Positions 5,916 to 61,776 of a stretch of DNA of 64,000 nucleotides are shown piece by piece. Each line of letters begins with the position of its first letter. Position 1 is the first letter of the stretch. Source of the stretch: an uncultured Spirochaetales bacterium (lineage in GTDB: Bacteria; Myxococcota_A; UBA9160; UBA6930); the NCBI GenBank assembly GCA_964615365.1, contig CAZTOU010000002.1, positions 87,160 through 151,159 on the forward strand. The letters are read 5' to 3'. The position numbers were made by a program, and so were the translations under genes. The notes below the pieces were generated by a model. It was not told where the DNA came from. It did not search any database and saw nothing but the letters and a program-made list of their open reading frames with translations.

Positions 5916-8628
5916 TCGCGTGATGCTCGGCGGCCACTTGGAGGAGATCCTCGCGCAGCGCCTCGATGAGTTGGGGATCCGTGAGCTTCTTGCCTTCCCG
6001 GTCTTTCAGGTAGAAGGTGTCCGCCACCTGGTCCACCACCGTCGTCGCCCGGGAGAGAAAGATCTCGAGCCCGTGGTCGGCGATGGTACGCGTCAGGTCG
6101 AAGAGCAGTCCGAGCCGATCGTTCGCCGTCACATCCAGGACGGTGTAGAAGTCCGAAACCTCGTTCGAGATGACGACGCTGGGAGGTCTGGGGGAGGGGG
6201 CGACGCGGCGTCCGATCGGCCGCCGGAGGAGCTGGACCATGGCACCGAGCTCGCGGCGTCCCGACAGCACGTCCCGGAGGGTGCGGTCCAGATTCTCCCA
6301 GACCGCGCGCCGCTCCTCCGCACCCCCGCTGGGCGTCGACACCCGGTAGATCTCCAGCGCCATTCCCGCCCGCATGGTGTAGACCTGGGAGGTCAGGATG
6401 TTGATCCCCACGCCCGTCAGGCAGCCCGCCACCTTTCCGTACAGACCGTGCTGGTCTCGCGCGCACAGGATGAAGAGGCTGACTCCATCCGGCGTCTCGC
6501 GGACGGAGGTGGAGATGAGCCGATCGGATCCGAAGGAGAACACCACCACGGCGTGTTGCGCGATCTGCGGCGCCGTGTGGTTGACGAAGTAGCGTCGCGG
6601 CATCGCGTCGAAGTAGCTATCGATGCGGCTCTCGGCGATGCCGCGCAGGCGAAGCTCGCGCTTCGCCTCGTCGCCGTGGAATTCGATGTGCGCCTCCATC
6701 TGCTCCGCGGCGCGCTGGGGATCGTCACGGCCCGATTCGAGGAACTCGGAGGTGCGCTCGAACAGCTCCCAGAGCGATGCGCCCTTCCATTCGGTCCACG
6801 CCGCCGGAGACGAGGCGCGCATGTCGGCGTAGGTGGCCAGGTAGAGGTTCCGCAGGTTCTCTCGATCACCGACGATCCGAGCGAAATCGACGATCACCTT
6901 CGGATCGCTGAGATCGCGCCGCTGTGCCACGTGGGCCATCCACAGGTGGTGCCTGACGATGAAGACCGCCCGTGCCAGGCGCTCTCGCGAGAGACCGAGC
7001 CGCTCGAGGCAGCCCCATGCGAGCCTCGCCCCGATCTCCGGGTGATCTCCGCCCCTTCCCTTCCCGACGTCGTGGAGCAGGCAACCGAGGTAGAGGACCA
7101 GGAGATCGCTCACCGAGCGCATCAGATCGGTGAGCTCCGGGAAGGCCCTCTCATGGGTCCCGCGCCACAGCCGCCTGAGCTCCTCGACCAGGAAGATCGA
7201 GTGCACGTCGACCGTGTAGGTGTGATAGATGACGTGCTGCCAGCGGCAGACGATGTGCTCCCACTCCGGGAGATAGCGGCCGAGGATGCCGATCTCGTTC
7301 AACGCGGTCAGCGTGCGCCCCACCCGGTGCTCGGACTCCAGGATGCGAAACAGGGTTGCGGCGGCCTCGGGATCGCTCTGGAAGTCTTCGTCCACCAGGC
7401 GGAGGTTCTCCCGGACCAGCCGTTGCGACCTCCGCGAGAGGGGGACGTCGTGGGCCTGGGCGAGCTCGAAACAGCCGAGCAGCCGCAGGGGTCGCTCTCG
7501 GAGGTGCGCGGCGTGCGGGATCTCGAGTTGGCCGACGGAGATCTGGAAGCCGTCGCCCGCCTCCCGCACCTCTTGCGGTTGCGCCTGCGGGTTGCAGCGC
7601 GCCTGGCATTGCTCGATCACGATCTGCGAGAAGCTCTGGACGGATCGCGCATGCCGATAGTAGTCGCCCATGAAGCGCTCCACCGGGAGCTCGAGCTCCC
7701 CCTCCTGCGGGGGCTCCGTCATCTCCGCGGCGACCTCCTCCTGGAGCTCGAAGCTCATCTGATCGGCCTTGCGAGCGGCGAGCAGATGAAGCTGGTTGCG
7801 AACCCTCCAGAGGAACTGGAGGCCTTCCCGGTACTGCTCCATCTCCAGCTCGCTGAGAAGGCCGACGTGCAGGAGGTCCTCGAGCGTTCGGACCAGGGGC
7901 TGGGTCGCGCGAGCCACCCAGAGCGCCGTGTGATAGTCGCGCAGGCCGCCGACTCCGTCCTTCAGGTTCGGCTGCAGCAGGTAGAGGGATCCGCCGTACT
8001 TCGCGTGACGTTCCGCCAGCGCTTCGGCCTGGGTCCGGACGAAATCTCCCGGGTTCGCCAGCAGGTCGTTTCGAACCGCCGTGCTGAACTCGTGAAAGAG
8101 CCCGACGTCTCCTCCCAGGAAACGCGCCCCGATGATGGCCGTGAGAACGCTCGGTTCACTCCGGCAGAGCGAGAGGGTCTCTTCGATGGTGCGGACCGCA
8201 CCGCTGACCTCTGCGCGCGCATCCCAGAGCCACTGCTGGATCCGCTCGGCGACGTGGGCGGCCAGCGGGCTCATCTCACCGGCGTGGAGGAAGAGCAGAT
8301 CCACGTCCGAAGCGAGGGACATCTCGCGCCGCGCATAGCCACCCACGGCGATCATGCTGACTCGCGCCCCCGCCGCGCCCCCCTCCGCGAAATGCTCGAA
8401 CTCGGAGAGCCCGTAGAGGCGACGGAGCAGGCGGTCGAGGGCGTCCGAATTGGCCTCGTTGACTCGCTGTCCCGATTCCCCGGCGCGCTGCCGGGCGGCC
8501 AGGAACTCACGAACACTTCCGAGATAGGCGCGCGCCGCGGAAGCGATCTCGGCGGCCTCGTCCTTCCAGGTTTCCCGGCGCGGGTCGAATTCGGGAAGGT
8601 ATTGATCGAGCGACGGGGGGGTACTCAT
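5908..8628 (-). CDS. glnD: [Protein-PII] uridylyltransferase/uridylyl-removing enzyme
   Basis: AVGGYARREM..ASDVDLLFL (NT), LQPNLKDGVGGLRDYH, HTYTVDVH..LLHDVGKG (HD), two C-terminal ACT domains; ATG 8628 overlaps the amidase stop (ATGA). Confidence 0.95.
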   Translation of the reverse strand: MSTPPSLDQYLPEFDPRRETWKDEAAEIASAARAYLGSVREFLAARQRAGESGQRVNEANSDALDRLLRRLYGLSEFEHFAEGGAAGARVSMIAVGGYARREMSLASDVDLLFLHAGEMSPLAAHVAERIQQWLWDARAEVSGAVRTIEETLSLCRSEPSVLTAIIGARFLGGDVGLFHEFSTAVRNDLLANPGDFVRTQAEALAERHAKYGGSLYLLQPNLKDGVGGLRDYHTALWVARATQPLVRTLEDLLHVGLLSELEMEQYREGLQFLWRVRNQLHLLAARKADQMSFELQEEVAAEMTEPPQEGELELPVERFMGDYYRHARSVQSFSQIVIEQCQARCNPQAQPQEVREAGDGFQISVGQLEIPHAAHLRERPLRLLGCFELAQAHDVPLSRRSQRLVRENLRLVDEDFQSDPEAAATLFRILESEHRVGRTLTALNEIGILGRYLPEWEHIVCRWQHVIYHTYTVDVHSIFLVEELRRLWRGTHERAFPELTDLMRSVSDLLVLYLGCLLHDVGKGRGGDHPEIGARLAWGCLERLGLSRERLARAVFIVRHHLWMAHVAQRRDLSDPKVIVDFARIVGDRENLRNLYLATYADMRASSPAAWTEWKGASLWELFERTSEFLESGRDDPQRAAEQMEAHIEFHGDEAKRELRLRGIAESRIDSYFDAMPRRYFVNHTAPQIAQHAVVVFSFGSDRLISTSVRETPDGVSLFILCARDQHGLYGKVAGCLTGVGINILTSQVYTMRAGMALEIYRVSTPSGGAEERRAVWENLDRTLRDVLSGRRELGAMVQLLRRPIGRRVAPSPRPPSVVISNEVSDFYTVLDVTANDRLGLLFDLTRTIADHGLEIFLSRATTVVDQVADTFYLKDREGKKLTDPQLIEALREDLLQVAAEHHANG

Positions 8629-36831: not shown

Positions 36832-37844
36832 TCCGCCAGAAGGGGATCGTCCCCGTCGGCGCGACGCCGAAGCGCGGGAATCAGGGACGGATCTCCGCTG
36901 TTTCCCGCTGCGACGAGCGCGTTCCGGAGCAGTTCCCGAAGGCCCGGGCGTCGCATCGCCGTTCTCCGCGTCGCCTCTCGCCAGCTCTCCTGATCCAGGC
37001 TCAGCAGCCACTCGAGGGCGGGGGCACGCCACTCCGCGAGCGGCGCCAGCCGCTCGCGGAGCCGTCTGGGATCCGGGGGCACCCTTCGCTTCGGTCGCGT
37101 GTTCCAGGGGCAGACCTCCTGGCAGGCGTCACACCCGAAGACGCGATTCCCCTGAGCCTCCCGCATCGCTTCCGGAATCGCCCCGCGTTGCTCGATCGTC
37201 GCGTAGGAGAGACAGCGGGTGGCGTCGAGGACATAGGGCTCCGGAAACGCGCGGGTCGGGCATGCGTCGAGGCAGGCACGGCAGGTCCCGCAGTGGTCGG
37301 GCTCCGCAGAGCTCGCCCGAAGAGCGAGGTCGGTGATCACCACTCCGAGGAACAGCAGGGAGCCCAGCTCGGGATCGATCAGGCAGGTGTTCTTGCCGAT
37401 CCATCCCAGCCCGGCGATCGCCGCGTACGCCTTCTCCTGGACGGGCCCGGTGTCGACGTAGCTCTTGCAGCGGATCGGCCGTCCCGCCAGGACCTGGAGT
37501 CCGGTCTCGTAGGCGCGCAGGCGCTCCTGCAGCACCTCGTGGTAGTCATCGCCCCGGGCGTAGCGGGCAACGGCTCCGCGCGCCCCCTCCCCCGGCGCGT
37601 CCTCGACTCCCGAGTCGTAGACCAGGGACACGGCGACGATGCTCCGAGCGCCCTCGAGCACCCGTCGCGGATCCACCCGCTCCGGGAGCCGGCGGACCAG
37701 GTACTTCATCTCGCCGGCGTACCCGCGCGCGACCCAGCTGCGCAGGAACTCCGTCCGGGGAGTCGGCTCGGCCGGCGCCACGCCCACGCGGTCGAAGCCG
37801 AGTTCCGTTCCCAGCGCGAGCACAGCGTCGGTCAGGTCCGTCAA
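36828..37844 (-). CDS. queG: Epoxyqueuosine reductase
   Basis: GYAGEMKYL, VARYARGDDYHEVL, YVDTGPVQEK, GWIGKN, CGTCRACLDACPT, FGCDACQEVCPWN; TTG start overlapping the exosortase stop. Confidence 0.93.
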
Positions 37845-38692
37845 CCCGACCTCTCCAGTCGTCGCAGCAGGCCCCCCAGAGCCAGCATCAGGCCACAGGC
37901 GACCACATAGGTGAGCAGCCCGGCCGCCTCGTGCGGCGGTCCGGTGGTCGCGCGCTCGGTCCCGATCTCGATCGCGGCCACGACCGTCGCCACCACCCGC
38001 GCCAGGTTGCCCGTCATCGCCAGGGGAACCACCGCCGCATACAGGATCAGACGCGAACCCCAGCCCCGAAGCGTGAAGTGCGCGAGGAGCACCGCGAGCG
38101 GCAGGAGCGTGATGATCGAAGTCACCCCACTGCACGCCTCGGCGACGAAGAGGGTTTCGCCACCCGGCAGAATCAGGACGTTCCCATCCCGTGTCACCGG
38201 GAACGTGAAGGCCTGGAGGAGCGCGATCGAAGCCGACGAGACCACGAGCTGGAGACGCACGATGGCGGGCGTGATCCAGCTCGACGGCGGCGGCACCATG
38301 AAGATCAAGAAGCCGACGGGAAACGCCAGCGCCCGGAGCCAGCGCGCCCCTCGGCTGTAGAGCACCAGCCCGGCCACGGAGGCGACCAGCGCGACGCCCT
38401 GGAGCGTGATTTCTCCGGCCATCAGGCCCACGAGATAGGTGGCGAGCGCGAGCCCCAGAACCCCGAGACCGCGCCGGTCCGGAGCGGCCTCGAGCCCCGC
38501 CCGACGGGGACGCTCCCGGTAGAAGGCCCAGAGCGCCACCACGGGAACCAGGAAGCCGTGCGAGAGATAGTCGACCCGGGTCCAGACCTGGACGAGCGTC
38601 ACCAGCGTGGGAGCGAAGACCGCCAGCAGCAGCCCGGCCAGCAGCCACTCCCGCGGCTGCATGTTCGGCATCACCGTGACCCGGTCCGACAT
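37841..38692 (-). CDS. Exosortase/archaeosortase-family membrane protein
   Basis: Multi-TM; YLSHGFLVP, VAEACSG (Cys), N(L)ARV (Arg), HEAAG (His). Confidence 0.88.
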   Translation of the reverse strand: MSDRVTVMPNMQPREWLLAGLLLAVFAPTLVTLVQVWTRVDYLSHGFLVPVVALWAFYRERPRRAGLEAAPDRRGLGVLGLALATYLVGLMAGEITLQGVALVASVAGLVLYSRGARWLRALAFPVGFLIFMVPPPSSWITPAIVRLQLVVSSASIALLQAFTFPVTRDGNVLILPGGETLFVAEACSGVTSIITLLPLAVLLAHFTLRGWGSRLILYAAVVPLAMTGNLARVVATVVAAIEIGTERATTGPPHEAAGLLTYVVACGLMLALGGLLRRLERSG

Positions 38693-38866
38693 GGTCAGCG
38701 GATCGGTCCGATTCCGCGGAAACGTGACATCGAGTAGAAGGCTAGTCGAAAGGCCGCCCGGGTCCACGTCGACTTCGCCGGCAGGAGGCGTACCCTGCAG
38801 GAGTCCGGCCGCTGGCATGGGGCGGTGGCATCCGAGCACGGCCTCCAATCCCAGGGGCGGCGCCGA

Positions 38867-38894: not shown

Positions 38895-39593
38895 TTGGTC
38901 TCGCGATGGATGACCGGAATCCGCAGGTTCCTCGGCCGCTACCTCGTAGCCGGCGTGCTGACCTTCGCGCCCATCGGAATCACGGTCTGGGCGATTGCCT
39001 GGATCATCCAGAGGCTCGACAGCCTCTTCCTGCCCCGGGTGCTTCGGCTTTTCTATCCCCACCTCGAGGAGCCACCCAACGTTCCCTTCCTCGGCGCGAT
39101 CTTCACCCTCCTCGTGATCCTGCTCTTCGGCGTCGTCGCCCGCCACCTCTTCGGCCGGGAGATCGTTCGGCTCTGGGAGCGACTGCTCTCCCGGGTGCCG
39201 GTCGCGCGAAACATCTACGCCGCGGTGAAGCAGCTCCTGGACGCGATCTTCGTCGCTGGCTCGCCGAGCAACTTCCGTCGCGTGGTTCTGGTGGAGTACC
39301 CGCGAAGAGGGGTCTACGCGCTGGCCTTCACCACCGGTCCCTCCCGCGGACCCTTCGAACAGCTCGGGGTAGACGACCTCGTCAACGTGTTCGTCCCCAC
39401 CACACCGAACCCGACCTCGGGCTTCTACCTGCTGGTGCCGGAGAGTGATCTGACACCCCTGGAGCTATCCGTGGAGCAGGCCTTCAAGCTGGTGATGTCG
39501 GCGGGCCTGGTGGCGCCGGGGGATTCGCCGCCCGGCGAGGCGCCCGAGAACGCACCCGCGGGAGTGCCCCCCCCCGCTCCCGAGACCCGCTAG
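38895..39593 (+). CDS. DUF502-family membrane protein
   Basis: AGVLTFAPIGITVW, P.ARNIYAAVKQL, VVLVEYPR.G, VFVPTTPNPTSGF, EQAFKLVMSAG. Confidence 0.88.
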   Translation: MVSRWMTGIRRFLGRYLVAGVLTFAPIGITVWAIAWIIQRLDSLFLPRVLRLFYPHLEEPPNVPFLGAIFTLLVILLFGVVARHLFGREIVRLWERLLSRVPVARNIYAAVKQLLDAIFVAGSPSNFRRVVLVEYPRRGVYALAFTTGPSRGPFEQLGVDDLVNVFVPTTPNPTSGFYLLVPESDLTPLELSVEQAFKLVMSAGLVAPGDSPPGEAPENAPAGVPPPAPETR

Positions 39594-39883
39594 CCGGCTT
39601 CGTCCTGCCCCTTCGACAGGGACGCGGCGCGGCGTTCGCGAATCGCCTTGGCGGTGAACCAGATCGCGAGCACCGAGAAGATCGCGGCGCCGACCCGATT
39701 GAACTTGATCCACTCCATCTCCGGGTTCAGCCATCCGTCGTAGATGAACCAGAGCGAGAAGCCGATCAAGAGCACGGGCAGGAAGAAGGGATTGTCGAAC
39801 GGAGTCGGGGCGTGCTCCTCGTCGGAGTCGGCGTCGCCCTGGCTCGCGGCGTCCAGATCGCTGGGCTCTTCGCGTTCGGTCAC
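39590..39883 (-). CDS. Small hypothetical membrane protein (97 aa), probably leaderless
   Basis: Acidic N-terminus and two hydrophobic segments; TG-c-TAAGGT lies 6 nt before the GTG. Confidence 0.7.
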   Translation of the reverse strand: MTEREEPSDLDAASQGDADSDEEHAPTPFDNPFFLPVLLIGFSLWFIYDGWLNPEMEWIKFNRVGAAIFSVLAIWFTAKAIRERRAASLSKGQDEAG

Positions 39884-39973
39884 GGCGCGACCTTAGCAGT
39901 TGTCTCCTCGAGGCCGCACAAGCCGCCGTGGGAGGCGACCCGCCAGGGGGAGCGCGAAGGATCGGGAGACCCC

Positions 39974-40028
39974 GGTGCAGCAGGACGACTGCACCTGAAG
40001 CCTCCTCACTGCAGGGCGGTCGCTGCAG
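39974..40028. promoter_or_regulatory. Two palindromic sites, putative enhancer (UAS) for a sigma54 activator
   Basis: GGTGCAG-N8-CTGCACC (39974-39995) and CTGCAG-N8-CTGCAG (40009-40028); centres 34 bp apart, about -108 and -74 from the predicted +1. Confidence 0.65.
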
Positions 40029-40066
40029 CGCGGTCCTAACCCCTTGAATTTCCGACGATCCACCCA

Positions 40067-40081
40067 TGGCACGCGGCTTGC
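40067..40081 (+). promoter_or_regulatory. Sigma54 (-24/-12) promoter
   Basis: TGGCACG-CGGC-TTGC matches the TGGCACG-N4-TTGC consensus with exact GG-to-GC spacing. Confidence 0.85.
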
Positions 40082-40170
40082 GATGGCCCCTCCGCATGAG
40101 GATCATGGGAATCGGTCGCACATCGGCTCATCATCTCGATAGGGCCTGCGCGGCGAGGGAAGAAGATCCG

Positions 40171-41316
40171 ATGTCGCCTTCCTGGGATGATTCCGAAAGG
40201 GAACGCGGTCGCCGCGGTCGTGGCAGGCCGCGTCTTCGTGAGCTCGAGCTGGAGCAGCCCGATGCGGCAGATTCCGGCCTCCACCGGGCTCCGGCCTCTC
40301 CCCCGGCTTCCCGGCCGCGGCGCAAGGGCCGGCGCAGCCTCACACCGGAGGAGCGCGCCTACCGGGAGGCCCGCAGGGCGGCGAACCGGAAGATCGGCTT
40401 CCTGAGTCACCTGGTTCCCTACGCCGCCGTCTGCCTCTTCCTGCTCTTCGTCACGGGGTTCGGGGTGGCGACGATCGTCGCTCTCAGCTGGGGCATCGCG
40501 GTCGCCCTCCACTACTTCTTCGCCATCCTCGCACCTCGGCTGCGGCAGGAGATCATCCAGCACGAGGTGCGGCAGCAGGTTCAGAGCGACGTCTCGGAGC
40601 AGAAGAGAACCCTCGAGGGCCGGCACGCGCAGCACGTCGAGGAGCTCTCCGCCTCCATCGCCCACGAGATCCGCAACCCGATCACGGCAGCCAAGAGCCT
40701 GGTTCAGCAGATGGGTGAGGATCCCGCGTCCCCCGACAACGTCGAGTACGCCAACGTCGCGCTGGAGGAGCTCCAGCGGGTGGAGAAGAGCATCTCCCAC
40801 CTGCTTCGCTTCGCTCGCGAGGAAGACGTGGAGATCACCGACGTCTGCCTGGCGGACGTCGTGGACTCCGCGCTGGAGACCTTCCGCGATCGGATCGCGG
40901 AGGCCGGGGTGCGGATCGAGCAGGAGCTGTCCGCGGTCACCGCAATGCGCGGCGACCCGGACAAGCTGCGGCGGGTGATCATCAACCTGGTGGGCAACGC
41001 GCTCGACGCCTTCGAGGGTCAGGACGTCCCCTCCCCTGCGCTGCAGATCCGCTCCGGAGAGAACCTGGCCGGCACCGAGATCTGGATTCGCGTGAAGGAC
41101 AACGGGCCGGGCATCACGCCGGAGAAGCTCGACAAGATCTTCAGCCCCTTCTACACCTCCAAGTCCTCGGGTACCGGCCTGGGGCTCGCCATCTCCAAGA
41201 AGCTCGTCGATGCTCACGGCGGCTCGATCGAAGCCCAGTCCTCCCCCGGCTCCGGGACCGAGTTCTTCCTGACCTTCCCAGCGCACAGCAGCGAGGCGGC
41301 GGAGCGCGAGACGTGA
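40171..41316 (+). CDS. Sensor histidine kinase 1 with N-terminal 2TM-type domain
   Basis: KIGFLSHLVPYAAVCLFL..WGIAVALH (2TM-like); SASIAHEIRNP (H box); NLVGNALDA (N); DNGPGI (G1); FSPFYTSK (F); GTGLGL (G2). Confidence 0.9.
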   Translation: MSPSWDDSERERGRRGRGRPRLRELELEQPDAADSGLHRAPASPPASRPRRKGRRSLTPEERAYREARRAANRKIGFLSHLVPYAAVCLFLLFVTGFGVATIVALSWGIAVALHYFFAILAPRLRQEIIQHEVRQQVQSDVSEQKRTLEGRHAQHVEELSASIAHEIRNPITAAKSLVQQMGEDPASPDNVEYANVALEELQRVEKSISHLLRFAREEDVEITDVCLADVVDSALETFRDRIAEAGVRIEQELSAVTAMRGDPDKLRRVIINLVGNALDAFEGQDVPSPALQIRSGENLAGTEIWIRVKDNGPGITPEKLDKIFSPFYTSKSSGTGLGLAISKKLVDAHGGSIEAQSSPGSGTEFFLTFPAHSSEAAERET

Positions 41317-42419
41317 GTCTCCCGCGATCCGACGGAGGCGCGGCGATGGGGAGGGGCGACCGGGAGAGTGAGCGGATGCGCGAGAAGGGTCGGCATCGCC
41401 ACCACCGAAGCCGCCGGCGGCGACGCAGGCTGCCGCCCGAGCCCGAGGCGGATCTGACTCCGGAGGAGCAGGTCTACCGGGAGGCGAGGAGGCACGTGGC
41501 CGCCAAGGCGAGGCTGGTCCGCGATCTCATCCGGTACGCGGTCGTGGTGGGAGTGCTGGCCCTCGTGGCGAGCCGCGCCGCCTGGATCGTCGGAATCTGC
41601 TGGGGCGTCTTCCTCGCCGGGAACGTCTTCCGGACCTATGTCGAGCCCGCGCTGCGCCAGCGTTGGATCGACCGGGAGGTGGATCGCCGACTCGACCGCA
41701 CCGTCTCCGCCAGCCGGCGCGAGATCGAAGGCGAGCACACCCGCCGCATCGAGGAGATCTCGGCCTCCCTCGCCCACGAGATCCGCAATCCGATCACCGC
41801 GGCCAAGAGTCTGGTTCAGCAGATGGGCGAGGACCCGCGTTCGCCGGAGAACGTCCAGTACGCCGACGTCGCGCTCACGGAACTGGACCGGGTCGAGAAG
41901 AGCATCTCCCACCTGCTTCGCTTCGCCCGCGAGGAAGATGTCCGGATTTCCGAGATGCGCATGGCCGACGTGATCCCCTCGGCGGTGGAGTCCTTCCGGG
42001 ACCGTCTCGACCGGACCGGCGTCGAGGTGGCGATGGCGATCGACGCGAACGGCGCGATGCGCGGGGACCCGGAGAAGCTGCGGCGGGTGCTCATCAACCT
42101 GCTCTCGAACGCGCTCGACGCGCTGCTGGAGAGCCAGATCGACGAGCCCCGAATCGAGATCCAGAGCGGAGAGAACCTGGCGGGCACCGAGGTATGGCTG
42201 CGGGTTCGGGACAACGGCCCCGGGATCGATCCGGAGCGCCTCCAAGCCATCTTCAGCCCCTTCTTCACCTCCAAGGAGAGCGGCGCCGGCCTCGGGCTCG
42301 CGATCTCGAAGAAGGTCGTCGACGCCCACGGCGGGTCCATCGAGGTCGACTCGACCCCCGACCGAGGCACGGAGTTTCTGCTGACGTTTCCGAAACAGCA
42401 AGACCGCGGGAAGGCATGA
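41313..42419 (+). CDS. Sensor histidine kinase 2, paralog with divergent 2TM-type domain
   Basis: SASLAHEIRNPITAAKSLVQQMGEDP nearly identical to HK1; NLLSNALDA, DNGPGI, GAGLGL; GTGA overlap with the HK1 stop. Confidence 0.9.
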   Translation: MSLPRSDGGAAMGRGDRESERMREKGRHRHHRSRRRRRRLPPEPEADLTPEEQVYREARRHVAAKARLVRDLIRYAVVVGVLALVASRAAWIVGICWGVFLAGNVFRTYVEPALRQRWIDREVDRRLDRTVSASRREIEGEHTRRIEEISASLAHEIRNPITAAKSLVQQMGEDPRSPENVQYADVALTELDRVEKSISHLLRFAREEDVRISEMRMADVIPSAVESFRDRLDRTGVEVAMAIDANGAMRGDPEKLRRVLINLLSNALDALLESQIDEPRIEIQSGENLAGTEVWLRVRDNGPGIDPERLQAIFSPFFTSKESGAGLGLAISKKVVDAHGGSIEVDSTPDRGTEFLLTFPKQQDRGKA

Positions 42420-42422
42420 TCC

Positions 42423-43820
42423 ATGACGGCACGAATCCTCATCGTCGAAGACGAGCGGGCCATCCGGCTCGCGCTCTCCGGCCTTCTGCGCAGGGAGGGA
42501 CACGAGACCGATCAGGCCCAGAGCGGGGAGGAGGCAATTCGGGCCCTGGACAGGCAGTCCTTCGACTTCGTGCTGACGGACCTGGCATTGGGCAGCGGAG
42601 CGAGCGGAATGGACGTGCTGCGGAGCGCCAAGGAGCTCCAGCCCGAGACCCCGGTGGTGATGATCACCGCCCACGGCAACGAGAAGATCGCGGTCGAGGC
42701 GATGAAGCTCGGGGCCGACGACTACGTCCCCAAGCCCTTCGACAACGACGAGATCCGCCTCGTGGTGAAGCGCGCCCTGGAGCGCACCCGACTCGCCCGG
42801 GAGAACCGGATGCTCCGCGCCCGGGTCGAGAGGGATTTCGGTTTCGACAACCTGATCGGCTCCGGGACCGCCATGCAGCGCGTCTTCGAGACGATCCAGA
42901 AGGTCGCGGAGACGGACCTGACGGTGCTGATTCGCGGGGCGAGCGGGACGGGCAAGGAGCTGGTCGCCCAGGCGCTCCACCAGCACAGCTCCCGCAAGAG
43001 CCAGCCCTTCGTGGCGGTGAACTGCGCCGCCATCAGCCGGGAGCTGGTGGAGAGTGAGCTCTTCGGACACGAGAAAGGGGCTTTCACGGGCGCGGACGCG
43101 CGCCGCGCCGGGCGCTTCGAGGCTGCGGACGGTGGCACCGTCTTCCTCGACGAGATCGGCGACATGGCGCCGGAGACCCAGGCCAAGGTACTGCGGGTCT
43201 TGCAGGAGCACTCTCTCGAGCGGGTCGGTGGCACCCAGCCCATCGAGGTGGATGTGCGCGTCGTCGCAGCGACCCATCGGGACCTGGAGGCGGAGGTCGA
43301 GGAGGGCCGTTTCCGCGAGGACCTCTACTACCGCCTCAAGGTGGTGGAGATCGAGCTGCCGCCGCTTCGAGAGCGCACCGAAGACCTGCCCGCCCTCGTC
43401 CAGCGCTTCCTCGACCAGGTGGCGGAACGACTCGGACGCGACAAGAAGCGCCTCACCGACCAGGCTCTGGCCCGCCTGATTCGTCACTCCTGGCCGGGAA
43501 ACGTTCGCGAGCTTCGCAACGTGATCGAGCAGGCCGCCGTGCTCGCTCCCGGCGAATCCATCGAAGAGGCGGACCTCCATCTCTCCGGAAAAGCCGACGG
43601 CGCCGCGGCTCCCGGGACCGATCTCGCCGACGTGCCCTTCAGCGACGCCAAGAAGCGAGTGATCGAGGAATTCGAGCGCAGCTTCCTGCTGCGCGCGCTG
43701 CGAGACAACGACGGAAACATCTCCCGGACCGCGGAGGCGATCGGAATGGTTCGCCAGAGCCTGCAGCAGAAGATCCGGGAGCTCGAGCTGCGCGACGAGG
43801 ACTGGAGAAAGCCCGTCTAG
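42423..43820 (+). CDS. Sigma54-dependent response regulator (NtrC family: REC-AAA+-HTH)
   Basis: ILIVEDE/LTDL/KPF receiver; GASGTGKE; ESELFGHEKGAFTGA; LDEIG; FREDLYYRL; WPGNVREL; Fis-type HTH. Confidence 0.95.
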   Translation: MTARILIVEDERAIRLALSGLLRREGHETDQAQSGEEAIRALDRQSFDFVLTDLALGSGASGMDVLRSAKELQPETPVVMITAHGNEKIAVEAMKLGADDYVPKPFDNDEIRLVVKRALERTRLARENRMLRARVERDFGFDNLIGSGTAMQRVFETIQKVAETDLTVLIRGASGTGKELVAQALHQHSSRKSQPFVAVNCAAISRELVESELFGHEKGAFTGADARRAGRFEAADGGTVFLDEIGDMAPETQAKVLRVLQEHSLERVGGTQPIEVDVRVVAATHRDLEAEVEEGRFREDLYYRLKVVEIELPPLRERTEDLPALVQRFLDQVAERLGRDKKRLTDQALARLIRHSWPGNVRELRNVIEQAAVLAPGESIEEADLHLSGKADGAAAPGTDLADVPFSDAKKRVIEEFERSFLLRALRDNDGNISRTAEAIGMVRQSLQQKIRELELRDEDWRKPV

Positions 43821-43857
43821 GCGGCGCGCACCCCAGGAACCACGGAGGACCCTGACC

Positions 43858-44595
43858 ATGTCACGACGACCCGGATTGATCGCGCGATTCACCGGACTGT
43901 TTCGCGGCTGGGCGGCCGGCTGGCTGCGAGATCGCGAGGAGGAGAGCCCGCGCGCCGTCTACGAGCACGCCATCGCCGAGCGCATCAAGCAGTACCGCGA
44001 GCTCAAGGAGGCGGTCGCCGGCATCCTCTACATGAGAAACAAGCTGGAGGGCGAGCTCGAGCAGCGGCGCAACGAGCTGGCCCGAACCCACGGGGACATT
44101 CGCCGGGCCGTCAAGCGCGGCGACGACCAGGTCGGCCTCGCCCTGATCTCCCACAAGCAGCTCCTGGTGGGTGACATCGAGCGGGCGGAGAGGGAGTACG
44201 AGAGCCTGCGAGCCGAGGCCGAGGAGGCCAAGACCAACCTGATCCACTTCCGCGAGGAGATCCGGGTCCTGGAAAGGGAGAAGGGGCGAATCGTGGTGAC
44301 CCTCGCCAACGCGAAGGCGCGCCGTCGCATGACCGAGGCGCTCGACGGACTCTCGGTGGACGCGGACATGCGCGCCCTCGAGAACGTGCGCGAGCACGTC
44401 GCCCGCCTCGCCACCGAGGGCGACCTCGACAAGGAGCTCGGCACCGACCAGGGGCTCGCGGCCCGTGTCCGCGAGATCCGGGAGGAAGCGAATACCGACG
44501 CCGCCAAGAAGGAGCTGGAAGAGATCAAGCGTCAGCTCAACCCGGCGGAAATCCCGGCCCGCTCCAGCGAGGTCGCCTCCGCGACGTCGATCTGA
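43858..44595 (+). CDS. PspA/IM30 (Vipp1, ESCRT-III superfamily) protein
   Basis: Amphipathic N-terminus GLIARFTGLFRG; P..VYEHAI.E; long coiled coils; TLANAKARRRM; C-terminal ELEEIKRQL; GGAGG RBS. Confidence 0.85.
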   Translation: MSRRPGLIARFTGLFRGWAAGWLRDREEESPRAVYEHAIAERIKQYRELKEAVAGILYMRNKLEGELEQRRNELARTHGDIRRAVKRGDDQVGLALISHKQLLVGDIERAEREYESLRAEAEEAKTNLIHFREEIRVLEREKGRIVVTLANAKARRRMTEALDGLSVDADMRALENVREHVARLATEGDLDKELGTDQGLAARVREIREEANTDAAKKELEEIKRQLNPAEIPARSSEVASATSI

Positions 44596-44661
44596 GTCGC
44601 GCGGCTTCGGGGCGCAGCGGTCGCCCCCCGAGCCGCTCTTCCCCGGTGAGGGAGCACGAAG

Positions 44662-45135
44662 ATGGAACCGACGATCACGATGCGAAACCCACGGACCGTT
44701 CCGCGGGCCGACGAGCGGGAGTTCCAGAGCCTGTTGCGGCACTACGAGGTCCGCGAACGGGTGGAGGGTCGCGTCCGGACCCTCGGCCGGCTCTACCTGG
44801 CGATCTCGGCGCTGGGGATCCTCTCCGCCTGCATCGCCTTCCTGGCGATCGCACCCTGGGGCCTGCTCTCCGGGGATCCTACCGCCACCGCGCTGCTCGC
44901 CGGCCTGGGAGGCGCGATCGCCGCGGTGCTGCTGGTGATCTCGGCCCCGGGGCTGATCGGCGGCCTCGCCCTCCTGACGGGGCGCTCCTGGGCCAGGCTC
45001 TACGCGATGGTCCTCTCCGGCGTGCTCCTCCTCTGGTTTCCGCTCGGAACGATTCTGGGAACCTACTCCCTCTACGTCCTGCTGCAGCCGGACACCCGCT
45101 TCTACTTCGAGCGCCGGCGGGCGCAAGCTCGCTGA
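44662..45135 (+). CDS. Hypothetical multi-pass membrane protein
   Basis: 157 aa with about four hydrophobic segments; W(A)R..LLLWFPLGTILGTYSLYVLL motif. Confidence 0.75.
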   Translation: MEPTITMRNPRTVPRADEREFQSLLRHYEVRERVEGRVRTLGRLYLAISALGILSACIAFLAIAPWGLLSGDPTATALLAGLGGAIAAVLLVISAPGLIGGLALLTGRSWARLYAMVLSGVLLLWFPLGTILGTYSLYVLLQPDTRFYFERRRAQAR

Positions 45136-46209: not shown

Positions 46210-47739
46210 CTAACCGCCGGCCTTGAGAACGATCTCGACCGGCAGCTTCAGATCCTCCCCGTCGAGGTCGGCGAGCGCGGCGCGAATGGGCCCCGGGAGA
46301 TCCTCGGCGCGGACTCTGACCTCGAAACGGAGCATCCCGTCGCTCTCGATCGGCGGTCCGGGATCTTCGATCTCGGACGGCGGAGGAGACGTCACCTGGA
46401 CCTCGACGAGCTCCTCCTCCTTGGCCTCCTCCGGCTCGAAGAGCCCACCCTCCCCCATCTCGACCGTCACCGGATCGCCGGAAGGGACTGGGGGCTCCGG
46501 ATCGGCGTTCGCATCGGTGCGGGTCGAAGTGCTGGCGGAAGGAATGGGCAGCACCGCGTCGATCAGGGTCATGTTGAAGCCGCTCTCGGTCTCCGCTGCG
46601 GCCGGCGCTTCGAGCTCATCGGTCTTGACTTCGCTGGCGATCGGCTGCCGGTCCAGCAGGAAGGTCAGCTCGAACTCTTCGATGCTCACCACGTCCCCCA
46701 GCTCGAGGTCGCGGCGATGGATCTTCTCGCCGTTCACCCGGATGCCGTTGATCGAATCGAGGTCGCGCACCTCGTAGCGCTCCGCATCCCGCACGAACAT
46801 CGCGTGCCGACGGGAGACCTCGGGCTGCTCGAGAAAGATCTCGCACTCGCGAGAGCGGCCGGCGACGAGCCGATCCTGATCCCAGCTGAGGATCCGCTCG
46901 AGCCTTCCCTGATTCTGGATGATGAGACCCGCGTACCAGGTCGGCTCTCCGGCGGCCTCCTCCTCCGCAACCGGCGCTGCGGCGATCGAGACGGTCTCCT
47001 CGCCGCCATCCTCCGCCTCCTCCTCCGTCAGCTCGACGTCGTAGTCTCGCGGATCGACCTCGGTCTCGTCTCCCGGCACCGCGCCGGCGAGATCCGCTCC
47101 GTCTCCGAATTCGAAGGCTCCTCTGCCGCTCTCCGGGGCCGCTTCGGCCACCTCGATCGGCTCCAGCGCGCTCTCGATCGCCTCCTCGTCCGGCAGTGGT
47201 GCCAGATCCTCCGGCGGCGGCGCAGGGATCTCCTCCGGTGGCGACGTGTCGGCCACCTCCTCCGCATCGCAGAGGGGAGGCGGCTCGCCTTCGGGCTCGG
47301 ATTCGTCCGCGGCCTCCGCCTCGGATCTCGCGCCCTCGAGCATCTTCGCCTGGGTATCCACGCCGACGAAGTAGGTGTTCGAGGCGTCCCAGGCGTCGCT
47401 CTTCTCCCGCGTCGCCTCCTCCAGGACGGGAAGATCCTCGTCACCCGCCTCGGTCAGCACCAACTGGTGCTTTCCGATCACGACCTCGTCGCCCGGCTGG
47501 AGCTCGACGCTGTCGACGATCCGGCTGCCGTTCACGAAGCAGCCGTTCTCGCTCCCCGAGTCCTCCAGGATCACCCGTCCGTCCTCGTGCTTGAGCAGCG
47601 CGTGGAAGCGGCTCACGGAAGCGTTGTTGATCGCGATGTCGTTTTCCTTCATGCGGCCGATGCGGAGCACCCTTCCCTGGAGCGGCAACGTCTGCACCAC
47701 GCGACCCTTGAGCCGAAGCTGAATGACCGGAGAGTCCAT
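46210..47739 (-). CDS. Protein with two FHA domains and an acidic linker
   Basis: IGR..NDI..VSRFHA..DSGSENGCFVNG and AGRS..VSRRHA..DLDSINGIRVNG, separated by about 200 E/D/P/A-rich residues. Confidence 0.88.
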   Translation of the reverse strand: MDSPVIQLRLKGRVVQTLPLQGRVLRIGRMKENDIAINNASVSRFHALLKHEDGRVILEDSGSENGCFVNGSRIVDSVELQPGDEVVIGKHQLVLTEAGDEDLPVLEEATREKSDAWDASNTYFVGVDTQAKMLEGARSEAEAADESEPEGEPPPLCDAEEVADTSPPEEIPAPPPEDLAPLPDEEAIESALEPIEVAEAAPESGRGAFEFGDGADLAGAVPGDETEVDPRDYDVELTEEEAEDGGEETVSIAAAPVAEEEAAGEPTWYAGLIIQNQGRLERILSWDQDRLVAGRSRECEIFLEQPEVSRRHAMFVRDAERYEVRDLDSINGIRVNGEKIHRRDLELGDVVSIEEFELTFLLDRQPIASEVKTDELEAPAAAETESGFNMTLIDAVLPIPSASTSTRTDANADPEPPVPSGDPVTVEMGEGGLFEPEEAKEEELVEVQVTSPPPSEIEDPGPPIESDGMLRFEVRVRAEDLPGPIRAALADLDGEDLKLPVEIVLKAGG

Positions 47740-47813
47740 CAATCGTTTCACCTGTAGAAAAACGGGACCATCCCGTTGATTCCCCTTTCTTTTCGCACTC
47801 CCCGGCGCCAGAC

Positions 47814-47849
47814 TTGAACGGAGGCAGCGACAAGTCGACACTGTGTCGA
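47814..47849 (+). promoter_or_regulatory. Putative WS/DGAT promoter overlapped by a palindromic operator
   Basis: TTGAAC-17 nt-GACACT; TCGACAC-T-GTGTCGA (47835-47849) covers the -10. Confidence 0.45.
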
Positions 47850-47890
47850 TTTCGCTCATTGACGCGATGCGTCATCAAGGAGGGGCCAGC

Positions 47891-49378
47891 ATGCCCCGGT
47901 ACTCCTACGAACGGCTCACCGCCCTGGACCACTCCTTTCTCCTCCTCGAGAAGCCCAACGCCTTCATGCACGTGGCGTCCTCGGCCATCTACGAACTCGG
48001 GCCGCTCAAGACACCGGAGGGCGGCGTCGACATCGAGCTGGTCCGGCGTGGAATCAACGGCATCCTCCACCGGATCCCGCGCTACCGGCAGAAGCTCGCC
48101 TGGATTCCCCTGGAGCGTCAGCCGGTCTGGGTGGACGACGACCGCTTCAGCCTCAACTACCACCTTCGCCACGCCAGCCTGCCCCGCCCCGGTGACGAGC
48201 TACAGCTCAAGCGTCTCTCGGCCCGCATCATGGCCCAGCGCCTGGATCGCACCCGGCCGCTCTGGGAGATGTGGATCGTCGAGGGTCTCGAGGGGGATCG
48301 CTTTGCCGTGATCAGCAAGGTTCATCACTGCATGGTCGACGGGGTCTCCGGTGTGGACCTGATGACGGTTCTGATGAGCGCCCAGGCCGACGCGGAGATT
48401 CCCGAGGCCCCGCCTTTCGTCCCCCGTGCCGAGCCGAGCGGCTTCGAGCTGCTGCGCAACGAGATCGGACGCCGCCTCCGGCTGCCCTTCGAAGCGGCTC
48501 GGGACGTCCGGAACTTCGCGAACGAGGCGAGGGATGCCCGCCGGGAGTTCCTCTCCCGTCTTCGCGCCATGGTCGAGACGATCGGCGCCACCCTTCGGTC
48601 GGCCTCCGCGACTCCGCTGAATCAGCCGGTCGGTCCCCACCGTCACTTCGACTGGGCGACGATGCCGATCGACCAGATCAAGGAGCTGCGCAGGACGCTC
48701 AAGGGAACCCTGAACGACGTGGTGCTCGCCATCGCGACCGGGGCGGTGCGCCGCTTCCTCCAGCACCGGAGGGTCGACCCCACCGACCTGGACTTCCGGG
48801 TTCTCGCTCCCGTGAGCGTTCGGACCCAGGAGGAGGGGGGGAAGCTCGGCAATCGGGTCTCCGCCTGGATCGTTCCGTTGCCGGTGGGCGAGTCCGATCC
48901 CCTGGAGCAGATGAGGGCGATCTCCCGGACCACCGCGGAGCTCAAGAGCTCGAAGCAGGTCGTCGGTGCGGAGGTGCTGACCCAGGTCGCGGAGTGGACC
49001 CCCGCGACGCTTCTGTCCCTCGGCGCGCGGAACGCCACCCGCCTGCTTCCCTTCAACCTGGTCGTCACCAACATCCCGGGTCCGCAGGTTCCGCTGTATC
49101 TGCTCGGCGCGAAGATGGAGCAGGTCTTTCCCTACGTGCCGCTTGCGGACAACCTCGGCCTGGGAATCGCCCTCTTCAGCTACGACGGAACCCTGGCCTG
49201 GGGCTTCAACGCCGACTACGAGCTGGTCCCCGATCTCGACCAGTTCGTCCAGGCCATCCGGGATTCCTTCCAGGCGCTGCGCGAGGCCGCGGGAGTCGTG
49301 AGCACCGTCCCGAGGAGGAAGAAGCCGGCGCGCGCCGGCAAGGCGTCCCGGGCGAATGGCGGGAGCGTACCTTCCTAG
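47891..49378 (+). CDS. Wax ester synthase/diacylglycerol acyltransferase (WS/DGAT)
   Basis: RLTALDHSFL, LDRTRPLWE, KVHHCMVDG (HHxxxDG), NDVVLA, NLVVTNIPGP. Confidence 0.93.
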   Translation: MPRYSYERLTALDHSFLLLEKPNAFMHVASSAIYELGPLKTPEGGVDIELVRRGINGILHRIPRYRQKLAWIPLERQPVWVDDDRFSLNYHLRHASLPRPGDELQLKRLSARIMAQRLDRTRPLWEMWIVEGLEGDRFAVISKVHHCMVDGVSGVDLMTVLMSAQADAEIPEAPPFVPRAEPSGFELLRNEIGRRLRLPFEAARDVRNFANEARDARREFLSRLRAMVETIGATLRSASATPLNQPVGPHRHFDWATMPIDQIKELRRTLKGTLNDVVLAIATGAVRRFLQHRRVDPTDLDFRVLAPVSVRTQEEGGKLGNRVSAWIVPLPVGESDPLEQMRAISRTTAELKSSKQVVGAEVLTQVAEWTPATLLSLGARNATRLLPFNLVVTNIPGPQVPLYLLGAKMEQVFPYVPLADNLGLGIALFSYDGTLAWGFNADYELVPDLDQFVQAIRDSFQALREAAGVVSTVPRRKKPARAGKASRANGGSVPS

Positions 49379-61700: not shown

Positions 61701-61776
61701 TGGAGCGGGAAACGGGACTCGAACCCGCGACCCCGAGCTTGGGAAGCTCGTGCTCTACCAACTGAGCTATTCCCGC
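61701..61776 (-). tRNA. tRNA-Gly (anticodon CCC), CCA encoded
   Basis: GCGGGAA/TTCCCGC acceptor stem, TAGCTCAGTTGGTAGAGC D arm, CGAGC-TTCCCAA-GCTCG anticodon arm, GGTTCGAGTCC T arm, 3' TCCA. Confidence 0.97.

Follow-up and report, generated by a model that had tools for sequence, protein, structure and literature searches.

In this work, a 64-kb stretch of contig CAZTOU010000002.1 (hereafter the window; GC content 68%) was analysed, and a block of five co-oriented genes on its + strand (40171-45135) was found that likely encodes a membrane-signalling system built around a sigma-54 activator and a PspA protein. The first gene, HKa (40171-41316, +), encodes a histidine kinase of 381 amino acids (aa) with the Pfam domains 2TM, HisKA and HATPase_c, and the second, HKb (41346-42419, +), encodes a paralogous kinase of 357 aa whose domains are arranged alike and whose 2TM module has diverged. 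They are followed by the gene of the activator (42423-43820, +), a response regulator of the NtrC class (465 aa) with a receiver domain, Sigma54_activat, AAA_lid_14 and HTH_8, and then by pspA (43858-44595, +), which has a GGAGGA ribosome-binding site and encodes a 245-aa PspA/IM30 protein of the ESCRT-III superfamily. The fifth gene (44662-45135, +) encodes a hydrophobic protein of 157 aa with about three transmembrane (TM) segments and no family. Identical copies of the locus are present on metagenome contigs (JGI 3300009320, 3300013119 and 3300013117; ENA ERZ23498658), and the nearest named relatives are metagenome-assembled genomes (MAGs) of uncultured Myxococcota. The start of HKa is the ATG at 40171, which is preceded by GAGGGAAG and matches independent gene calls of 381 aa, while a longer reading frame from the ATG at 40066 was rejected because it overlaps the sigma-54 promoter. 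HKb most probably starts at the ATG at 41346 behind a GGAGG motif, leaving a gap of 29 nucleotides (nt) to HKa.

The intergenic region in front of HKa (39884-40170) contains the sequence TGGCACgcggcTTGC (40067-40081, +), with GG in the -24 and GC in the -12 element, and this is the single exact match to the sigma-54 pattern TGGCAC-N5-TTGC on both strands of the 64 kb. The transcription start predicted from its position would lie near 40092-40094. When one mismatch is allowed, 1.7 chance matches are expected per window; the only other near-match (6240-6254, +, TGGCACCGAGCTCGC) deviates within the -12 TTGC and lacks neighbouring palindromes, and it is probably a match by chance. The palindrome TGCAG-N8-CTGCA (at most one mismatch) has three matches in the whole window, all of them in this intergenic region, 40-90 nt 5' of the promoter. 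The distal putative upstream activating sequence (UAS) is GGTGCAG-N8-CTGCACC (39974-39995, core 39976-39993), with its centre 82 nt 5' of the start of the -24 element. The middle one is TGAAG-N8-CTGCA (39996-40013), which has one mismatch and an offset of -62, a position that recurs in related loci, and the proximal one is CTGCAG-N8-CTGCAG (40009-40028, core 40010-40027) at an offset of -48. An earlier note on this DNA, made from the letters alone, had described enhancer-like palindromes, a -24/-12 promoter and five co-oriented genes with the above domains, and all of these were recovered at the coordinates that it gave. Its gaps of 3 nt between HKb and the activator gene and of 37 nt between the activator gene and pspA also stand, whereas the GTGA overlap that it gave for the two kinase genes does not and is probably the 29-nt gap.

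The arrangement is conserved. A scan with a PspA alignment, using one genome per GTDB species, yielded 80 loci, all from MAGs that are mostly labelled Myxococcota or Deltaproteobacteria, with PspA proteins 51-88% identical to that of the window. According to tblastn with the window proteins, the activator gene lies directly 5' of pspA on the same strand, preceded by one or two 2TM kinase genes, in 77 of these loci; in two others the contig ends within the activator gene, and the remaining one (L079) has a kinase gene and pspA with no activator gene nearby. Two kinase genes are present in 51 loci and one in 26, several of the latter being located on truncated contigs. In the reverse test, six kinase homologues selected solely for the length of their contigs were all followed by (kinase-)activator-PspA, and three more distant kinase-anchored metagenome loci likewise had the activator and a PspA with 46-54% identity, which gives 9/9 kinase-anchored loci. 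When metagenomes were scanned with the kinase alignment and the generic H-box pattern, mostly unrelated kinases were gathered, and the family members among them are L088-L091 only. In one kinase-anchored locus, a second kinase gene follows pspA (L171:8508-9476), giving the order kinase, enhancer-binding protein, PspA, kinase. The linkage to pspA, which the earlier note expected to be conserved, is therefore kept from 88% down to 46% PspA identity while the flanking genes change. Because the flanking genes vary among the loci, kinase(s)-activator-PspA is the conserved unit, and gene order supports this well for the uncultured Myxococcota clade.

The regulatory sites are conserved together with the genes. 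In the relatives, promoters were scanned within 560 nt 5' of the first kinase gene; GG and GC were required, and one mismatch was tolerated elsewhere. A -24/-12 element was present in 55 of the 68 loci with enough upstream DNA (background 0.046 per kb). Among the inverted repeats 5' of these promoters, TGCAG-N8-CTGCA is the most frequent by a wide margin; an exact copy occurs in 43 of 56 promoter regions, and one to four copies with at most one mismatch occur in all 56. The palindromes cluster near the offsets -82, -62 and -48 from the -24 element, and their 8-nt spacers have diverged. Such fixed-offset palindromes with diverged spacers are characteristic of sites bound by the activator encoded in the operon and hence of autoregulation, and TGCAG-N8-CTGCA is thus the predicted site of this activator, the use of the promoter by the sigma-54 RNA polymerase being predicted likewise. 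In three loci (L023, L030 and L074), a divergent sigma-54 promoter uses the same palindromes. It could be argued that the juxtaposition of the genes or the promoter match arose by chance, with no functional link, since single consensus matches do occur at the rate given above. However, no second exact match exists in the window, this one is located in the right intergenic region, and the promoter is conserved together with its palindromes, at constant offsets, in 55 or more independent lineages. Chance juxtaposition is effectively refuted by this conservation, and we regard it as extremely improbable.

The earlier note had placed pspA under the promoter of the operon, and this agrees with the sequences between the genes. 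A sigma-54 promoter belonging to pspA itself was sought at up to two mismatches and rejected, because none is located within 250 nt upstream of pspA in the 80 loci (background 0.22 per kb). The 37-nt gap 5' of pspA is less structured than shuffled sequence, and no terminator-like structure was found in it. Two loci (L030 and L035) have an insertion of one gene between the activator gene and pspA, and there a second palindrome and sigma-54 promoter precede the inserted gene and pspA. Moreover, in L079 palindromes and a two-mismatch promoter precede the kinase gene and pspA, and the activator gene is elsewhere. Together, the missing pspA promoter, the second promoter in L030 and L035, and the arrangement in L079 tie the expression of pspA to the activator and sigma-54.

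Both kinases keep the H, N, G1, F and G2 boxes and are 59% identical overall. HKa consists of an Arg-rich disordered N-terminal tail, a 2TM hairpin (approximately residues 75-120), a dimerization and histidine phosphotransfer (DHp) domain with H165, and a catalytic and ATP-binding (CA) domain. The single hydrophobic stretch comprises approximately residues 75-123, and Pfam assigns a 2TM domain. In the AlphaFold2 (AF2) model of HKa, with a predicted local distance difference test (pLDDT) score of 77, residues 1-43 are disordered and two helices (59-95 and 97-183) are broken at G96 only, so that the TM2 helix continues past the phospho-acceptor H165 and neither a HAMP nor a PAS domain intervenes. 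The input module thus has two TM helices joined by a very short external linker and lacks any extracytoplasmic domain, as in intramembrane-sensing kinases, and the short two-helix membrane region without a periplasmic sensor that the earlier note had seen in both kinases is borne out by Pfam and, for HKa, by the model. The invariant residues of the HKa membrane module are H80, G96, W107, G108, H114, F116 and P122, of which H80 and H114 are each located about 16 residues from the hairpin turn on its opposite sides. By hhalign, the 2TM module showed no relationship to PspC and PspB of Escherichia coli (probability 0.9% and 4%, respectively). Among the database names of these kinases (P0209, P0242, P0274 and P0275), several are "HAMP domain-containing sensor histidine kinase" at NCBI and some are "HydH" at JGI; these names look like generic transfers, because Pfam finds no HAMP domain and the model has one continuous helix.

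In a neighbour-joining tree, 48 first-position kinases were separated wholly from 48 second-position kinases. This clean split points to a single ancient duplication after which the gene order remained fixed. The single kinases group in part with HKa (17) and in part with HKb (9). Judged from the tree, the twin kinases are ancestral and were reduced to a single kinase in some lineages; the twin kinases of the earlier note are therefore an old feature of the system, not a constant one, since 26 loci have a single kinase. By comparing the paralogues of the same locus, identity was 77% in the DHp domain, 55% in the CA domain and 23% in the pre-TM/2TM module, while among orthologues the membrane module is 55% identical for HKa and 31% for HKb. 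The near-identical DHp domains indicate that HKa and HKb share one target regulator and could dimerise with each other, and the divergent hairpins suggest that the two kinases probably bring two inputs to one output.

The receiver domain that the earlier note had assigned to the activator was found at residues 5-115 (Response_reg, E-value 1.8e-28), with D53, T82 and K104. It is followed by an AAA+ domain with the GAFTGA motif (Sigma54_activat, 6.9e-76) and a Fis-type helix-turn-helix (HTH_8, 6.5e-08). With its receiver Asp, GAFTGA and C-terminal helix-turn-helix, the protein is a Group I bacterial enhancer-binding protein (NtrC class). Its best NCBIfam matches are NtrC, AtoC, NtrX and ZraR, every one below the equivalog cut-off (AtoC, 454 bits against 714; ZraR, 404 against 760), as is PspF (286 against 444). 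These matches raise the question of whether the locus is an ordinary Ato/Zra-like system whose signal, soluble or metal, has no relation to the integrity of the membrane, with PspA as a co-expressed passenger. The kinase cores score best against the AtoS and ZraS models and the activator against those of NtrC, AtoC and ZraR, and the JGI name HydH for some kinases points in the same direction. However, all scores are far below the equivalog cut-offs, including those of the kinase (AtoS, 191 bits against 646; ZraS, 154 against 479), and the kinases have neither a periplasmic nor a cytoplasmic sensor domain. Furthermore, the linkage to pspA outlasts the exchange of the flanking genes over the whole range of PspA identity, and a pspA separated from the activator gene still has a UAS and a sigma-54 promoter. 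We therefore consider an ordinary Ato/Zra-like system with PspA as a passenger very unlikely.

The PspA of the window matches PF04012 (PspA_IM30) over residues 28-225 with an E-value of 3.9e-18 and 66.3 bits against a cut-off of 33.9. It scores 16.7 bits against 243 for TIGR02977, the equivalog of proteobacterial PspA, which is so far below the cut-off that it is not an orthologue of E. coli PspA, and a BLAST comparison of the two proteins gave no significant similarity. The closest solved sequences are those of Vipp1 and cyanobacterial PspA. In the AF2 model (mean pLDDT 80), helices 31-87, 90-193 and 200-227 form an ESCRT-III-like hairpin fold, and the top 17 Foldseek matches in the PDB are all Vipp1 or PspA (6zvr, 7o3w, 7abk and 4whe) with a probability of 1.00. 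A candidate for the amphipathic, membrane-binding helix alpha-0 is an N-terminal helix predicted at residues 7-29 with a pLDDT of just 51-55; the segment is conserved in the clade, with G6, R10 and G17 invariant.

Some relatives carry variants of the module. In L030 (6998-7972), the gene inserted between the activator gene and pspA encodes a kinase-dead paralogue that keeps the 2TM module. In L085 (4184-8744), a receiver-less, PspF-like activator is encoded about 3.6 kb 5' of pspA, and a degenerate kinase paralogue directly precedes pspA behind a sigma-54 promoter, with its 2TM module kept and its H-box and ATP-binding motifs lost. A comparable kinase-like gene was found by tblastn before pspA in L086. 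The combination in L085 hints at transitions between PspF-type and two-component control. On the opposite strand, 3.7-7.2 kb beyond pspA, some loci have a gene for a 79-aa protein with two TM segments and a weak DUF5683 match (e.g., L040:11382-11700, -). In L021, L031, L040, L067 and L069, a separate TGCAG-N8-CTGCA palindrome and a -24/-12 element lie in front of this gene, while in L041 the gene only is present, and no promoter-bearing counterpart was found in the window. It is probably, from these sites, a second member of the regulon in that subclade.

The variants bear on the role of PspA, which could be mainly that of a feedback regulator. In such a case, PspA would bind the membrane/DHp scaffold of the kinases or the activator and switch the signalling off, similar to the pairs PspA-PspF or LiaF-LiaS; stress drawing PspA to the membrane would release the system, and the physiologically important targets may be elsewhere in the genome. 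The minimal conserved set contains no third regulatory protein, and L030 and L085 encode, directly 5' of pspA and behind a separate sigma-54 promoter, kinase paralogues that keep the 2TM module but have no H-box; the comparable gene of L086 is likewise found before pspA. The second UAS and promoter at the 79-aa membrane protein gene also mean that the regulon can exceed the operon. On the other hand, Trp56 of PspF is the residue needed for PspA binding (PMC6003685), and in the activator, the AAA+ domain of which is 48% identical to that of E. coli PspF, this Trp is replaced by Lys (SSRKSQPF aligned with SSRW56QGPF). No further palindrome or promoter occurs in the 64-kb window, and feedback is compatible with an effector role of PspA and does not replace it. 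We consider it unlikely that feedback is the main function of PspA, while feedback onto the kinases is plausible as an addition to the mechanism described below.

We hypothesize that the operon is a self-contained envelope-stress module of the uncultured Myxococcota clade, and the conserved genes and sites make this likely. The two-helix membrane hairpin of the one or two kinases would be the sole input module, connected by one continuous helix to the phospho-acceptor histidine. On detecting a perturbation in or at the cytoplasmic membrane, the kinases would phosphorylate the NtrC-class activator at Asp53. The phosphorylated activator would then assemble on the TGCAG-N8-CTGCA sites, approximately 70-110 bp 5' of the transcription start, and open the sigma-54 promoter of the operon using ATP. 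The expression of the kinases and the activator would rise by positive autoregulation, and that of PspA would rise by read-through, so that PspA could polymerise on the damaged membrane and stabilise it. HKa and HKb would share the partner regulator, possibly as heterodimers, and carry two inputs to one output. In this scheme we infer the signal, the phosphotransfer, the induction, the co-transcription and the effector role of PspA. The core of it (intramembrane-type kinases, a sigma-54 activator with a receiver, an autoregulated operon and PspA as the output, with PspF, PspB, PspC and LiaF absent) had been put forward in the earlier note and is supported at the level of comparative genomics.

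Several points weigh against this hypothesis. Membrane stress as the stimulus is proposed by analogy with Psp and Lia. The membrane module of HKb is poorly conserved, which makes its sensory role uncertain. In 13 of the 68 loci no promoter was matched at up to one mismatch, and at least one of them (L079) has the two-mismatch version. The co-transcription of pspA is deduced from the short gaps and from the lack of detectable promoters and terminators between the genes, and sigma-70 promoters are not predictable in a genome with 68% GC. Finally, rpoN is not located in the 64-kb window. More tentatively, the 2TM-DHp scaffold itself might be the membrane receptor for PspA, or might directly sense the proton-motive force or bilayer stress via the invariant His80/His114 pair at equal depth in the HKa hairpin. 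In that case sensor and effector, the kinase and PspA, would make up a closed loop without a PspB/C- or LiaF/LiaI-like adaptor, the kinase-dead paralogues beside pspA would be dedicated PspA anchors, and the clade would record an evolutionary transition between PspF-type (receiver-less, L085) and two-component control. We consider this combination doubtful as a whole.

The fifth gene was regarded in the earlier note as a component of the system, and this did not hold. It is located 3' of pspA in 11 of the 80 loci, which are limited to the closest relatives of the window, and it has 46 homologues among 5.8 billion proteins; by this distribution it is a lineage-restricted accessory outside the conserved core. 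In the interval from pspA to the fifth gene, a GC-rich hairpin (44600-44635) was rejected as an attenuator, because its stability is no greater than that of shuffled sequence (z = -0.7). The enhancer region is flanked, within 38910-39883, by a gene for a DUF502 membrane protein (+) and a divergent gene for a 97-aa protein with two TM segments (39590-39883, -). The closer relatives have both genes in this place, and L168 has the DUF502 gene there as well, but this does not extend across the clade. No Pfam or NCBIfam family was found for the fifth gene or the 97-aa gene, even at E = 10. Further neighbours encode a protein that has a long acidic linker in addition to two FHA/Yop-YscD_cpl domains (46210-47859, -), a wax-ester synthase/DGAT (47843-49378, +) and an exosortase EpsH (37841-38848, -), none of which is linked to the operon in the more distant relatives. 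Rfam and tRNA scans of the locus gave no match, and a tRNA-Gly(CCC) gene (61701-61776, -) is the sole RNA gene detected in the window.

To our knowledge, PspA/Vipp1/ESCRT-III proteins are universal membrane-repair machines, and we know of just three model wirings (PspF-PspBC, LiaFSR and ClgR) in which the sensing of the need for PspA is understood. The locus would add a fourth one, which is minimal and conserved and combines membrane-hairpin kinase(s), a sigma-54 response regulator and PspA. It has a predictable enhancer motif and natural variants with one or two kinases, kinase-dead paralogues or a receiver-less activator. Since the module needs only three to four genes and sigma-54 is present in E. 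coli, it could be rebuilt in a heterologous host. The rebuilt module would offer a way to ask how a bare two-helix hairpin reports the state of the membrane, a question that is general to intramembrane-sensing kinases.

By comparing the locus with known systems, sigma-54 and an enhancer-binding protein are shared with the enterobacterial phage shock protein (Psp) system (pspF || pspABCDE). However, PspF lacks a regulatory domain, and PspA controls it by binding at Trp56, whereas here a receiver and paired kinases are present and Lys occupies that site. Moreover, pspF is divergent from pspA, while the regulator gene here lies 5' of pspA in the same predicted transcript. The absence of PspB, PspC and LiaF noted earlier was confirmed nearby: no called gene within 10 kb on either side matches the Pfam families of PspB or PspC, tblastn of the E. 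coli proteins against the window gave chance-level matches only, and no Toastrack, DUF2154 or LiaI-like family is in the same gene list. With the LiaFSR-LiaIH system of Firmicutes (and VraTSR), the locus has in common an intramembrane kinase, a regulator and PspA. The Lia kinase, which is of the intramembrane type, and its response regulator control their own expression, and their main output is the induction of a PspA homologue (PMC9239133, PMC11237479). On the other hand, LiaR is of the NarL or winged helix-turn-helix type and acts at a sigma-A promoter, in contrast to the sigma-54 activator here, and LiaS has a HAMP domain, whereas TM2 in the HKa model runs directly into the DHp domain. LiaF (inhibitor) and LiaI (anchor) are also integral to Lia, whereas no LiaF/Toastrack or LiaI-type gene is conserved nearby here and the gene 3' of pspA varies among the relatives. 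In actinobacterial PspC-fused histidine kinases, a Psp-related membrane module serves as the input of a two-component system (PMC9239133); compared with these three-component systems, the 2TM module is unrelated to PspC or PspB, and the regulator class and sigma factor differ.

The two surveys of PSP contexts describe PspF without a receiver, NtrC-like regulators with ACT or PAS domains, and kinases with a receiver-winged helix-turn-helix regulator (PMC9239133, PMC11237479). A receiver-AAA+-helix-turn-helix regulator with kinases adjoining pspA is in neither of them, and by their own account neither made a systematic search for two-component and PspF-like regulators (PMC9239133, PMC11237479). 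No equivalent architecture was found in the further literature within our coverage, to which subscription journals do not belong, and the expectation of the earlier note that the arrangement is undescribed has held so far. The ZraPSR system of E. coli and Salmonella shares a kinase with a ZraS/AtoS-like catalytic core, a receiver-containing enhancer-binding protein, sigma-54 and an envelope effector. In this system, the kinase and the receiver-AAA+-helix-turn-helix regulator activate the sigma-54 promoters of their own genes and of an envelope-protective effector. The differences are that ZraS has a periplasmic sensor domain, that the effector ZraP is a periplasmic chaperone, and that the operons are divergent. 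No description of the locus having been found, its gene content and sites suggest a conserved variant of PspA regulation, in which the logic of Zra and Lia is placed on a Psp effector.

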